Below, piece by piece: positions 10,321 through 14,049 of a stretch of 64,000 nucleotides of DNA. Where the stretch lies: the NCBI GenBank assembly GCA_017460225.1, contig JAFUBM010000005.1, positions 12,284 to 76,283 on the forward strand, in the 5' to 3' direction. Below the pieces are notes generated by a model. That model searched no databases and was not told the DNA's origin. It saw only the letters and a list, made by a program, of their open reading frames with translations. Within the stretch, counting starts at the first letter, position 1. Each line of letters starts with the position of its first letter. This stretch comes from Candidatus Saccharimonadota bacterium. GTDB lineage: Bacteria; Patescibacteriota; Saccharimonadia; Saccharimonadales; Saccharimonadaceae. The translations under genes and the position numbers were made by a program.

Positions 10321-10698
10321 CTAGATACCTAACGATTCGTCGGAGAGGGGCGTAGCGCCGTAAGGGTCGCTAAACTCGTTGAGGCGATCAAGCTCAAGGC
10401 GGAGGTTTTTGAGGTATTCTTCTAGCGCCTCGCGAGTAATCTTGCCGGTGTCGGAGAAAACAAAATCAGCATCGTCTTTGTCCTTTTCGCTTTCGTCTTC
10501 TTCTGGGAGGAAGCCGGGACGGGAACGGTCGAGATAAATATCGCCGGAATCGTGATAGAGCTTGAGAGAGACGGCGGTAGTGAGGAAAGTAATGCCTACG
10601 GCGGAAGCGCCGAGAATCAAGAGATGCTTAGCGCCGGGGGTGAGATTTTGGGACGAGTCTGGAGCGGGGGTTTTATGGAAAGACGGGAGTTTAATCAT
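10321..10698 (-). CDS. Small single-pass membrane protein
   Basis: One TM and an acidic tail; overlaps the upstream stop (translational coupling). Confidence 0.7.
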   Translation of the reverse strand: MIKLPSFHKTPAPDSSQNLTPGAKHLLILGASAVGITFLTTAVSLKLYHDSGDIYLDRSRPGFLPEEDESEKDKDDADFVFSDTGKITREALEEYLKNLRLELDRLNEFSDPYGATPLSDESLGI

Positions 10699-11221
10699 CG
10701 AGATTCTCCTTGATAATCTCTACGGACTTGACGGAGTTAGTAAGGAGGGTGCTGATGGTCTTGACGTCATCTTGAAGAACTTCGCGCTTCTCGCGAGTAG
10801 AGACGAGCTTGTTGTAAAAGGTCTCTGGCTCAAGACGGCAGTCGATAGCGATAAGCTCCTCAAGGGACTTGGAATAGTCGATGTAGTCGGCGGAGAAGTT
10901 GGAGCGAGAGGTGGCGAGGGCGGTCTGGAGGTTGATCAGAGCAACGGAGGAGAGGTCGTTTTTGACGAGACGGAGGTTTAGCGGGGTAATGTATTTGGAG
11001 AGGGCGGTCTCGTAAATGGCGCCGTAGTAGGTGCGAGTGCGAGCGTCGGAGCGCTGGAGAAGTTTGAGGCTCTGGCGGATGGAGCCGCAGTTCTCGGAGA
11101 TTTGGTCGCGCTTTTTAGAAGAAAGCTGAGAGGATGATTCTTCGGCAAATGCCGAGGGAGCAAAGAGAAGGACGAAGAGCGCAAGAGCGAATGTTGTAAT
11201 TTTTGCAACGTTAGTCTTCAT
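10691..11221 (-). CDS. Secreted alpha-helical protein with two Cys
   Basis: Signal peptide ending AFA; ENC and IDC cysteines; coupled to the upstream gene. Confidence 0.75.
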   Translation of the reverse strand: MKTNVAKITTFALALFVLLFAPSAFAEESSSQLSSKKRDQISENCGSIRQSLKLLQRSDARTRTYYGAIYETALSKYITPLNLRLVKNDLSSVALINLQTALATSRSNFSADYIDYSKSLEELIAIDCRLEPETFYNKLVSTREKREVLQDDVKTISTLLTNSVKSVEIIKENLDD

Positions 11222-12305
11222 AGAGACCTAGGTGTTTACGGTTGTCGTAGAGGAGAGTAGGGATGCCTTTGATGTGGACTTGGTTAGTCGCGATGTCTTT
11301 GACTTGGGCGAGGATGGCGCTGACTTCGGCGGAGTCGCGGAGACGACCTAGCTCGGAGATTTCTTCTTCGCTGGCACCAAAATCGCGAAGCCAGGACTTA
11401 AGCTCGGCCTTGGCATCGGAATATGACAGGGAAGCAAAGTAGCTTTGGTAGATGATTCCCTTGTCGGTGCGCTCAGTAAAGAGGCGGTTTAGGAGCTTCA
11501 GACCGTAGCTGGTCTTAGCCTCGGCGTCTTGGTCGAGGAGGGCGGCGGCATAGAAATAGCGGGCAAAGAGCTCGGAGTTGGCAAACTTGTAGTCACCCTC
11601 GGAAAGCTCAATCGGGTAGGGCAAGAGAGCGGTGCGGTGGGTCTCGAAGAAGCCAGAGGAAAGTTGGTTCCGGAACGACATCATACAAGCAGAACAGCCA
11701 GGGTCGAGAATGTCGAGAGCAAAGGCGGCAGATTCGGCAGGGGCGGACTTTGACGGGTCGAGGACGGAGGCATCGACAAAAGTAGGGACCTCAAGGAAGT
11801 AATCCTCGGCGTGCCAGGATTTGATACGGTCGGGGAGCGCCTCAAAAATGTCGCCCCACTCGGTAAACCAGCGGCCGGTCTTCTGCCAAAAAGTCTTGGA
11901 CTCGTCTTCGTCGCCGAGAGAACAGGCTTCGGAGGAGAGGGTACAGGAGGCGGGACGGTCGACGTTGCAGGTGCCGAGCGCCCAAAGGGAAAGGAGGGAC
12001 TTGACGGACGTCAGGACGGCCCAGAGAAAGACGGCAACAAAAATTACGGACAGGACTTCTAGAATGACAGAGAGAGGCTTGAGCCAGCCGGGGTGGGAAA
12101 GCACGAGGCGTTTGAAGAGAGCGTTTTTGACATCGTCTTTGAAGTTGGTATCGCACTTTTGGAGGCGAACTTTTTTAGAGACGCAACCGAGGGATTTTTT
12201 GAAGACTTTCCAGTAGGCACGACCAATCTCGCGCTTGAAGATGGAGATGACGGCGACAAAGATGCCAATAATTCCGAGAATAATAAACGCAGCAATACAA
12301 ACCAT
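11211..12305 (-). CDS. Membrane-anchored DsbA/thioredoxin-fold protein
   Basis: Two N-terminal TMs; LDILDPGCSAC (CxxC); C-terminal IKGIPTL cis-Pro loop. Start moved to 12305. Confidence 0.7.
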   Translation of the reverse strand: MVCIAAFIILGIIGIFVAVISIFKREIGRAYWKVFKKSLGCVSKKVRLQKCDTNFKDDVKNALFKRLVLSHPGWLKPLSVILEVLSVIFVAVFLWAVLTSVKSLLSLWALGTCNVDRPASCTLSSEACSLGDEDESKTFWQKTGRWFTEWGDIFEALPDRIKSWHAEDYFLEVPTFVDASVLDPSKSAPAESAAFALDILDPGCSACMMSFRNQLSSGFFETHRTALLPYPIELSEGDYKFANSELFARYFYAAALLDQDAEAKTSYGLKLLNRLFTERTDKGIIYQSYFASLSYSDAKAELKSWLRDFGASEEEISELGRLRDSAEVSAILAQVKDIATNQVHIKGIPTLLYDNRKHLGLYED

Positions 12306-12352
12306 ATTTATTATTATACCAAGTTTGGGGAGCATTTGGTATAATGAAATTC
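12306..12352. promoter_or_regulatory. Divergent pair of leaderless extended -10 promoters
   Basis: TGgTATAAT-N7-ATG on both strands: -10 at 12318-12313 (minus) and at 12340-12345 (plus). Confidence 0.7.
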
Positions 12353-13513
12353 ATGAATGATTTTGACTATCTTAAAGCGGGGGAAGTATACGTCGATGCG
12401 GCGTGCCAGAGCTTGCGCCCGCGCCCAGTGCTAAACGCGCTAACCGAATACTACGAGAAGTTTAACTCGTGCGGGGAGCGGGTGAAATATTCGTGGGGAA
12501 TCGAGACGGACAAACGAGTAGAGGCGACGAGGGAGAAGGTTCTGAAATATCTCAAGCTCTCGCACCGCGATTATTTTGTCTCCTTTACGCTAAACACGAC
12601 TTATGGAATCAATTTGCTACTGTCGCAACTTGACGGGGAGCAATTTGATGTTGTAGTGACGAGCGATATTGAACATAATTCCCCGTTCTTGTCAACGATG
12701 ACGTTTGCGGAAAAATATGGCATGGAGAGAAAAATCCTGAGCCGGGGAGAGGATGGGAGCTTGCCGGTAGGCGAAATCCCGGAAAAAGCGGTGGCTGTGA
12801 TCAACGCGGCGTCGAACATCGACGGGCGAAAGCTAGTCAACATCAAAGATGTGGTGCGGCGCGTTCATAAAACTGGTGGAGTTGTCATTATCGATGCGGC
12901 GCAAGCGATGGCACACTCAAGCGACGTCTTGGAGAAGACTGAGGCGGACGCGATTTGTTTCTCGGCACATAAAATGTATGCCCCAAGCCTCGGAGGGATA
13001 GTGGTCCGGAAGGATTTGCTCCCAAAGATTAAGACGACGTTTATCGGCGGTGGAATGGTGGATGATTTAGACAAGGAAAGCTATTTGCTATCGAGCGAGA
13101 AAAATCCCGACCATCTCTACACGAAGTTTGAGAGTGGGCTGCAAGCCTGGGGGGAAATCATAGCACTAGGGGCGGCAATAGATTGGCTAGGGAAACTCAG
13201 CAAGAAAGAGCACAAAAATCTTGAGGCTAACTACACGGAGGTGTTTGAGTTTTTGAACGCGAGCGAGAAAGTGCACCTTGTAAACCGCGAGGCAAACCCA
13301 ACGATGAGCTTCTTTGTGGAGGGAATCGACTCGCACTTGCTCGGCGAGGCGCTGGGAGCGGAGAAAATTATGGCAAGGACGGGCTACTTCTGCGCGCATT
13401 ATTATCTGGACAAGGTGCGCCATTTGCCGCCGCTGGTCCGGTTCTCACTGGGCTACCATAATCGGCCGGAAGACGTGGAAAAAATTAAGAAAGTGATGGA
13501 GAAAATTGTATGA
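12353..13513 (+). CDS. Class V PLP aminotransferase, SufS/cysteine desulfurase-like
   Basis: YVDAAC, IEHNS, DAAQA, FSAHKM (PLP Lys), RTGYFCAH (catalytic Cys loop). Start is 12344 or 12353. Confidence 0.85.
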   Translation: MNDFDYLKAGEVYVDAACQSLRPRPVLNALTEYYEKFNSCGERVKYSWGIETDKRVEATREKVLKYLKLSHRDYFVSFTLNTTYGINLLLSQLDGEQFDVVVTSDIEHNSPFLSTMTFAEKYGMERKILSRGEDGSLPVGEIPEKAVAVINAASNIDGRKLVNIKDVVRRVHKTGGVVIIDAAQAMAHSSDVLEKTEADAICFSAHKMYAPSLGGIVVRKDLLPKIKTTFIGGGMVDDLDKESYLLSSEKNPDHLYTKFESGLQAWGEIIALGAAIDWLGKLSKKEHKNLEANYTEVFEFLNASEKVHLVNREANPTMSFFVEGIDSHLLGEALGAEKIMARTGYFCAHYYLDKVRHLPPLVRFSLGYHNRPEDVEKIKKVMEKIV

Positions 13514-14049
13514 AAAAAGAAAGAAAACAGCAGGCCGGGAAATACTTTATCTTTGGCGTAGTAAATACGCTGGTGAACTATGGGCTATATGAGGCGCTGG
13601 CGCTCTTGGTGTTTACGGCAGAAAACCAGCTCTGGCTGGCGACGCTAATCTCGGGAGTGGTGGGGATTTTTACGGGATACTATCTCCACTCGCGGTTTAC
13701 CTGGAAGGAACGCGAGGTTGGAAAGAAGGAACTGGGGAAGTTTTTTGTCTGGAACGTGGGGTTGGCGGTAGCAATCAAGCCGGCGTTAACCTGGATGCTT
13801 GAGCAACCGAAGTTCTTATATAAACTAGCTTACGACATCTGCCAGGCAATCCACGTCCCGTTCTCCTACGAGTTTGTGGAGACGACGGGAATCTTTGTGC
13901 TAATGACGGCGGTGGTGATGGTGATTAACTTTTTGGTCTATGACCGATTTGTCTTTGGGAAGAAGAAGGAAGAGAAGAACAGGGAAGAGATAGAGGTGAA
14001 GAGCGTTCGGAAGTCCCGAGAAGAAGTTGAGGGAAAGCGCGAAGCTTAG
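13510..14049 (+). CDS. GtrA family lipid-linked sugar flippase
   Basis: YFIFGVVNTLVNY...SRFTW...NFLVYDRFVF pattern; 3-4 TMs. Confidence 0.8.
   Translation: MKKERKQQAGKYFIFGVVNTLVNYGLYEALALLVFTAENQLWLATLISGVVGIFTGYYLHSRFTWKEREVGKKELGKFFVWNVGLAVAIKPALTWMLEQPKFLYKLAYDICQAIHVPFSYEFVETTGIFVLMTAVVMVINFLVYDRFVFGKKKEEKNREEIEVKSVRKSREEVEGKREA

Follow-up and report, generated by a model that had tools for sequence, protein, structure and literature searches.

A stretch of 64,000 nucleotides from a gut Candidatus Saccharimonadota bacterium (contig JAFUBM010000005.1), referred to here as the window, was analyzed at positions 10321-13513. At this locus a cysteine desulfurase-like enzyme dependent on pyridoxal phosphate (PLP) is encoded next to a membrane protein in which a cysteine-rich N-terminal module precedes a DsbA-like domain. 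Comparison with related genomes strongly supports the proposal that the enzyme and the membrane module are two halves of one conserved system. The open reading frame (ORF) listing of the region contains four genes, one on the plus strand encoding the PLP enzyme and three overlapping genes on the minus strand. Coordinates are window positions, and residue numbers refer to the module-DsbA protein counted from its revised start (12305). The features are as follows.

12353..13513, plus strand: SufS-family (type II) cysteine desulfurase-like PLP enzyme; frame open from 12344, likely start 12353.
12306..12352, no strand: divergent promoter region of 47 bp with two back-to-back extended -10 boxes, read directly in the sequence.
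11901..12305, minus strand: N-terminal membrane module, residues 1-135, based on cysteine invariance, predicted secondary structure and charge bias.
11214..11828, minus strand: extracytoplasmic DsbA-like thioredoxin-fold domain, residues ~160-364, based on AlphaFold2, Foldseek and the invariance of CxxC and I348-P349.
10691..11221, minus strand: secreted 176-aa helical protein with invariant C45 and C128, coupled to the module gene.
10321..10698, minus strand: 125-aa protein with a single transmembrane segment, no cysteine and the motif GDIYLDRSRPG.LP, coupled to the 176-aa gene.

As called, the ORF of the PLP enzyme spans 12344-13513 on the plus strand (389 aa) and that of the membrane/DsbA-like protein 11211-12335 on the minus strand (374 aa). 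More than 1,600 database homologues of the module-DsbA protein start at ORF residue 11, M-V-C-I-A-A-F (general pattern M-x-C-I-A-A), and orthologues of the PLP enzyme begin MNDFDYL. These N-termini place the real starts at 12305 (minus) and 12353 (plus), hence the spacer of 47 bp. Both strands of the spacer carry TGGTATAAT-N7-ATG, at 12337-12345 on the plus strand and at 12321-12313 on the minus strand, and we read the two boxes as mirror-image extended -10 promoters positioned for leaderless mRNAs; the consensus promoter scan listed neither of them because it demands a -35 hexamer. The minus-strand genes are translationally coupled, since stops and starts overlap by 11 nt between the 374-aa and 176-aa ORFs and by 8 nt between the 176-aa and 125-aa ORFs. 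A preliminary description of this DNA had proposed the 47-bp spacer with mirror-image leaderless promoters and a three-gene coupled operon; both held, and the motifs it quoted (RTGYFCAH, CVSKKVRLQKC, CNVDRPASCTLSSEAC, CSAC and GIPT) were all found.

The membrane module is composed of a first transmembrane helix (TM1) carrying C3, a basic cytoplasmic helical hairpin with the pair C41-x9-C51, a long second transmembrane helix (TM2) and an outer cysteine set, C113-x7-C121-x6-C128. All eight cysteines of the module-DsbA protein were invariant in alignments down to 27% identity. Across every architecture of the family M1, C3, C41, C51 and C113 were invariant and C121 was at least 90% conserved; the cytoplasmic cysteines kept a flanking acidic residue (C-[DE]) and the invariant spacing C-x9-C. 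Hydropathy gave two hydrophobic segments, residues 1-28 and 73-110. Averaged over 35 homologues, the net charge was +9.7 for the inter-helix loop and -4.4 for the stretch after TM2, which supports a predicted topology with the N-terminus out, the loop in and the C-terminus out. The preliminary description had held that cysteines outside the CxxC motif would be conserved and would lie on both faces of the membrane, and these data agree with it on both points, the second as a prediction. An AlphaFold2 model computed with the 35 homologues reached a mean predicted local distance difference test (pLDDT) score of 82; its N-terminal part consists of TM1 (2-23), a basic helix (25-46), a short low-confidence loop, a helix (55-70) and TM2 (72-110), followed by a cysteine loop (111-138) of low confidence.

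Neither Pfam nor NCBIfam gave a match for the module when the window protein and ten diverse relatives were scanned, and a PDB sequence search with the membrane protein returned none. Three known families were tried as candidates and rejected, using VKOR and DsbB alignments built from relatives for hhalign. As a VKOR, the module had no PF07884 match, an hhalign probability of 0.5% against an alignment of eight Patescibacteria VKORs, and two helices versus the four or five of a VKOR core, which has CxxC in TM4 and a loop cysteine pair. As a DsbB, it had no PF02600 match, an hhalign probability of 0.6% and two hydrophobic segments, whereas DsbB is a four-helix bundle with CxxC in the first outer loop; no DsbB appeared among the Foldseek hits, all of which were of the DsbA type and fell on the C-terminal domain. 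As a DsbD/CcdA protein, it had no PF02683 match and two helices versus six or more with cysteines inside TM1 and TM4, and its sole helix cysteine (C3) is at the outer end. Exhaustive profile searching across 1.8 billion representatives returned only 223 clusters. Among members, the module (residues 1 to ~130) was found standalone in proteins of 125-170 aa, fused to canonical Thioredoxin_4/DSBA domains in proteins of 305-321 aa, or fused to a divergent DsbA-like domain as in the window. By its architectures the membrane part is a predicted independent domain, alone or fused in the same manner as DsbB and VKOR; fusion to an exported DsbA-type domain is the usual form.

The C-terminal domain (residues 160-364) was modeled with pLDDT above 90, and its top Foldseek matches were DsbA, ScsC, MdbA and BcfH (TM-score to target 0.5-0.69). 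The model confirmed a predicted DsbA fold, that is, a thioredoxin fold with an inserted helical domain, as the preliminary reading of a CSAC/IPT thioredoxin-fold domain had anticipated. C204-S-A-C207 and I348-P349 of the cis-Pro loop GIPT were invariant in the 35 homologues. The window protein matches no Pfam family at E ≤0.1, DSBA and Thioredoxin_4 included; among distant relatives that share the module, matches to PF13462 and PF01323 were obtained. In some of the Thioredoxin_4 domains fused to the module CxxC is followed by x-[YF]-T.

The PLP enzyme matches Pfam Aminotran_5 (6e-57). Its closest NCBIfam model is TIGR01979 (sufS), with a score of 186 bits that lies below the curated SufS cut-off of 475, and its PRK09295 score is 111 against a cut-off of 661. 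The PLP lysine (SAHK), EHNS and DAAQ align with Bacillus subtilis SufS, giving the His/Asp/Lys set of class V, and RTGYFCAH aligns with RAGHHCAQ of that protein, the short catalytic loop R-x-G-x-x-C-A. SAHK, EHNS, DAAQ and the GYFCAH cysteine were invariant in the module-linked clade (16 enzymes). These enzymes also share an extra invariant cysteine in D-x-A-C-[QMS]-[ST]-L-[RK]-P, where SufS has Ala or Thr, and the subtype of the catalytic loop (GY[FH]C versus GQHC) tracks the subtype of the module protein. The enzyme is accordingly classed as a type II cysteine desulfurase-like protein with catalytic Lys and Cys intact and with predicted desulfurase activity.

The genome from which the window comes (G000; 694 kb, 98% complete) encodes three class-V enzymes, one followed by NifU_N (contig C8), one followed by MnmA (contig C14), and that of the window. 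The NifS-NifU and desulfurase-MnmA pairs mean that ordinary sulfur needs already have a supplier. The partnership of SufS with SufE or SufU and SufBCD was not recovered, as this genome is without SufE and SufBD and its single NifU_N gene sits behind another desulfurase. The enzyme had been called a lone SufS-like protein. This stands in that no suf or isc partner gene adjoins it at the locus, and has to be amended in that two further desulfurases with ordinary partners are present in the genome.

The distribution of the pair was determined in a phylum sample of 401 Patescibacteria genomes, with 19 module loci used for neighborhood comparison. A module-only profile hit 21 of the 401 genomes, all at E ≤1e-42 with nothing intermediate, and all 21 have the SufS-like clade. 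When the window enzyme was the query, the best-ranked genomes of the sample were the module genomes and G184; two module genomes (G249 and G323) hold only partial SufS-like copies and ranked lower. In G184 the SufS-like orthologue (L147:3040-4287) is split by stop codons into three ORFs and the module is absent, as if the two had decayed together. Canonical SufS genes (27-28% identity, with SufB/C/D/U-type neighbors) were not accompanied by the module. In 60 genomes drawn from other families of the window's order no SufS-like orthologue was found, and none of those checked has the module. In the genomes searched, the SufS-like clade was found only where the two-helix module with its five to six cysteines was found, the G184 pseudogene apart.

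The SufS-like gene adjoins the module gene in 14 of 17 assessable loci, standalone modules included. In most cases it immediately precedes the module gene in the same orientation; the two are usually translationally coupled, as a rule 0-8 nt apart, and in many lineages the spacing is between -4 and +8 nt. All-against-all ORF clustering of the 19 loci found only the desulfurase and the module, and no third conserved gene. A second set comprised 80 species-level Saccharibacteria loci, all from animal-gut or rumen metagenome-assembled genomes (MAGs). The divergent arrangement of the window occurs in 20 of these and the enzyme lies upstream on the same strand in 13; in 44 no SufS-like gene was found within the 3-kb upstream flank. 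Of these 44 unlinked genomes 18 were checked, and all 18 encode an orthologue elsewhere (58-66% identity). The neighbors of the relocated genes were not conserved, and no trend toward complementary charge was seen between the basic loop and the desulfurase. Synteny in relatives had been expected for the divergent gene pair, and the partners proved to be adjacent or co-occurring far beyond the genus.

Members of the module clusters are annotated as Nanoarchaeota, 'archaeon' MAGs, Liptonbacteria and the cultured actinobacterium Piscicoccus intestinalis. In the Nanoarchaeota, a class-V enzyme with the same signature is encoded 1.6 kb before a standalone module, in the same orientation. At that locus (L153:2146-7475) the module has a 14-Cys tail, and its neighbors are the signature desulfurase, an uncharacterized 283-aa protein, a 47-aa poly-acidic peptide and a 629-aa transglutaminase-core protein. 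The Piscicoccus operon runs from a Thioredoxin_4 protein (244 aa) through the desulfurase (415 aa) to a module-DsbA protein (361 aa), with overlapping stops and starts. Upstream of it (L150:1991-6086) are an ArsR-type HTH_5 regulator with two N-terminal cysteines and a 146-aa hydrophobic ORF, and downstream is an HTH_17 excisionase-like gene; the locus is possibly a mobile cassette regulated by metal or persulfide. The module was found in 1 of 41 genomes of the Piscicoccus family and VKOR in 21 of the 41, with no pattern. That Piscicoccus is the sole carrier suggests horizontal acquisition.

Other disulfide and sulfur machinery was then compared. In the window's genome no VKOR, DsbB, MauE, DsbD/CcdA, SufE, SufBD or UbiA-type prenyltransferase was found, and two further DsbA-like proteins are present; the proposal that no conventional DsbB/VKOR or SUF system accounts for both proteins was therefore upheld for this genome. 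Within the window's family, the module without VKOR was seen in 3 of 3 genomes of its genus, and VKOR without the module in 8 of 9 others. In the phylum sample VKOR was found in 3 of the 21 module genomes (G261, G295 and G352) and in 131 of the 380 others. DsbB was found in 5 of 18 tested module genomes (G039, G249, G284, G340 and G366) and MauE in one (G366); Piscicoccus has two MauE genes. Strict complementarity with VKOR, DsbB and MauE was considered and rejected, as it holds in the window's family only and is contradicted by the module genomes that carry one of these enzymes and by Piscicoccus. Such coexistence indicates that the module system is not a simple substitute for quinone-dependent enzymes.

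The conserved cysteines, the synteny and co-occurrence of the pair and a genome without alternatives together give strong support to a functional link between the SufS-like enzyme and the module. A desulfurase that is always linked in this way points to an undescribed route by which cysteine supplies the cell surface with sulfur or oxidizing power.

A signal peptide of the AxA type is present in the 176-aa protein, whose two cysteines were invariant in 67 orthologues, in accordance with the earlier description of the second operon gene as encoding a secreted two-Cys helical protein. It gave no family or PDB match. In the 125-aa protein, which gave no family match, GDIYLDRSRPG.LP was strictly conserved just outside the membrane in 68 orthologues. 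Both genes lie downstream of the module gene in 67 of the 80 Saccharibacteria loci and are absent from the co-directional Saccharibacteria clade and from all other lineages with the pair, a distribution by which we class them as putative lineage-specific accessories. The secreted 176-aa protein could be a client. Beyond the desulfurase, a gene for a GtrA-family membrane protein (13510-14049, plus strand) has a start that overlaps the SufS-like stop (ATGA), and the same overlap is present in a sister genome (L025); this coupling suggests co-transcription of the desulfurase with GtrA in the genus. The GC skew is strongly positive (0.14-0.35) in all 2-kb bins of the window (1-64000), an unusually strong and uniform strand asymmetry.

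As the overall best explanation, we propose that sulfane sulfur derived by the desulfurase drives extracytoplasmic thiol-disulfide chemistry via the module, and we give this proposal slightly less than an even chance of being correct. The desulfurase would take sulfur from L-cysteine as an enzyme persulfide and hand it to cytoplasmic C41/C51 at the tip of the basic hairpin, which would serve in the acceptor role that SufE or SufU has for SufS. The zero-valent sulfur would be the oxidant, attack on the persulfide by the neighboring thiol, or by outer thiols once a sulfane-sulfur species has crossed, yielding a disulfide and H2S. The oxidizing equivalent could reach the outer face by a membrane-permeant sulfane-sulfur species set free at the membrane or by a conformational relay, and outer C3/C113/C121(/C128), followed by CSAC of the DsbA-like domain, would pass it to exported proteins. 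The module would then take the functional place of DsbB, VKOR or MauE, fed by cysteine sulfur and not by quinone.

Several observations were counted for the generation of disulfides by this route. Among them are the co-occurrence and adjacency of the pair, the invariant cysteines and catalytic residues, and the alternation with VKOR inside the window's family. The window's genome is without DsbB, VKOR and MauE, yet it has two more DsbA-like proteins, and the module occurs alone or fused to Thioredoxin_4/DSBA domains as DsbB and VKOR do. The chemistry has a precedent: under anaerobic conditions polysulfides oxidize DsbA in vitro, and they rescue E. coli mutants in dsbB and in dsbA (Xin et al. 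2025, PMC11921322). Disulfide generation is a tentative reading, well short of an even chance. Its full form, a genetically encoded de novo generator that works without oxygen or quinone, uses cysteine-derived zero-valent sulfur as terminal oxidant, conveys it through the two-helix, five-Cys module to exported DsbA domains and releases H2S in candidate phyla radiation (CPR) bacteria, DPANN archaea and at least one cultured actinobacterium, is possible but doubtful.

A number of results weigh against this proposal. The hairpin with the cytoplasmic cysteine pair was modeled with pLDDT of 47-58. In the model C41/C51 occupy a strongly charged hairpin, separated from the outer cysteines by roughly the thickness of the membrane, and a direct relay through two helices is not obvious. 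At least 8 of the 21 module genomes also have DsbB, VKOR or MauE, and some fused Thioredoxin_4 domains have SxxC in place of CxxC (P0255 and P0268); coexistence in ~40% of genomes and the SxxC variants favor non-redundant sulfur handling over plain replacement of DsbB. The window's genome also encodes another candidate partner for a DsbA in the membrane that is unrelated to the module, a 203-aa polytopic protein with four cysteines, among them GCPTCG within a helix (contig C3, L044:2021-2632, minus strand). It has no Pfam or NCBIfam match, and its gene overlaps the start of a DsbA-like gene with CPYC (L044:1345-2061, minus strand).

The same co-occurrence and adjacency data would fit a relay in which sulfur itself moves outward. 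The desulfurase would load the module with persulfide, and the outer cysteines and the DsbA-like domain would carry sulfane sulfur or hand it over at the surface, where it might persulfidate proteins, cause metals to precipitate or reach an extracytoplasmic acceptor. The presence of DsbB, VKOR or MauE beside the module, in Piscicoccus as in the genomes counted above, suggests such a non-redundant job; SxxC variants cannot form an active-site disulfide, and an ArsR-type regulator lies upstream in Piscicoccus. However, no acceptor or product is identifiable and no other gene is conserved with the pair in the 19 loci. Most exported domains keep a complete CxxC and cis-Pro, as DsbA oxidases do, and a persulfide beside a second thiol tends to collapse to disulfide and H2S. 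We consider this relay unlikely.

It is improbable, in our estimate, that the C-x9-C pairs of two subunits bind a metal or an Fe-S cluster that is built by the desulfurase and acts as electron sink or sensor for the outer thiol-disulfide domain. Cysteine desulfurases do most often serve Fe-S assembly, two cysteines per subunit would make four in a dimer, and the invariant spacing with its flanking acidic residue (C-[DE]) would suit a binding site. But no SufBD/SufE scaffold was found in the window's genome, where the only NifU sits with another desulfurase; neither conserved His nor further ligands are present, nor haem- or quinone-type helix residues that could carry electrons across ~30 Å of membrane, and C-x9-C is not known as a cluster motif.

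A reductive path of the DsbD/CcdA type, in which the module keeps the exported thioredoxin-like domain reduced for isomerization or repair and the desulfurase is regulatory or accessory, would account for a cytoplasmic cysteine pair combined with outer cysteines and a thioredoxin fold, and for a genome in which DsbD/CcdA was not found. The cis-Pro loop GIPT, which we take to resemble that of thioredoxin, points the same way. This path leaves the strict co-occurrence with a catalytically intact desulfurase unexplained; the module has two helices with neither cytoplasmic cysteine within the membrane, unlike DsbD/CcdA, and the fold matches are of the DsbA, ScsC and MdbA class. Its prospects are poor. 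Mere coincidence, with a housekeeping desulfurase for Fe-S or tRNA thiolation beside a membrane-anchored DsbA, is scarcely credible. In its favor, the genes are divergent and not co-transcribed in the window's genus, and 44 of the 80 Saccharibacteria loci have no such enzyme within 3 kb; but the two co-occur in every genome checked (CPR, DPANN and actinobacterium), the desulfurase decays where the module is absent (G184) and housekeeping is already covered by the NifS-NifU and desulfurase-MnmA pairs.

The proposed sulfur-driven system resembles several known ones in part. In DsbB-DsbA, VKOR-DsbA/Trx (including VKOR-Trx fusions and actinobacterial MdbA-VKOR) and MauE, a cysteine-bearing membrane protein is likewise fused to or encoded beside an exported DsbA-type domain, membrane-proximal and loop cysteine sets lie on the outer face, and the distribution among relatives is patchy and partly complementary. 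The module differs in having two helices and not a four-helix bundle, in showing no sequence, profile or fold similarity, and in its invariant cytoplasmic cysteine pair and obligatory PLP desulfurase; a quinone-synthesis marker was not found in the window's genome. With SufS-SufE, SufS-SufU and CsdA-CsdE it shares a type II desulfurase with a short cysteine loop, which needs a dedicated acceptor cysteine presented by a partner, and a partner gene directly downstream. The presumed acceptor, however, is a loop of a membrane protein and not a soluble SufE/SufU fold, there is no SufBCD scaffold, and the enzyme clade lies far below the SufS cut-offs, with its extra invariant cysteine (D-x-A-C-Q) where SufS has Ala or Thr. 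DsbD, CcdA and ScsB also have cysteines on both sides of the membrane and a link to an exported thioredoxin-fold domain, but they show no homology to the module, have six to eight helices versus two, and work with cytoplasmic thioredoxin and not a desulfurase; the module has no cysteine in the membrane core.

In polysulfide-driven disulfide formation (PMC11921322), zero-valent sulfur is likewise a two-electron oxidant of DsbA and dithiols that needs no oxygen or quinone and releases H2S. There the polysulfide is exogenous and no dedicated proteins are involved, whereas here a gene pair could make and channel sulfane sulfur. An MdbA-like family of the CPR, fam000318, is membrane-anchored, CPR-enriched and has a VKOR neighbor, and was proposed to fold pilins or other exported proteins (Meheust et al. 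2019, PMC6744442); that paper mentions neither the membrane module nor the desulfurase. A preprint of 2026 proposed MauE as a third DsbB-like family, with ~20% of species lacking DsbB, VKOR and MauE (bioRxiv 10.64898/2026.03.05.709764). No paper that describes the pair was found in literature searches on desulfurase with DsbA, on Saccharibacteria, and on persulfide with DsbB or VKOR.

The epibiotic life of the ultra-small CPR bacteria and DPANN archaea relies on pili and surface proteins, and many of these organisms are without all known disulfide generators. Dutton and colleagues reportedly raised, in 2008, the question of how organisms without a respiratory chain or quinones oxidize their exported proteins. 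The MauE preprint restates this question, and gaps remain (bioRxiv 10.64898/2026.03.05.709764). The copy in cultured Piscicoccus intestinalis and the small size of a two-gene system make the idea directly testable. If it is true, the pair would represent a new class of machinery that links cysteine catabolism and H2S release to the folding of envelope proteins, and it would give cysteine desulfurases a role outside the supply of sulfur for Fe-S clusters, tRNA and cofactors.

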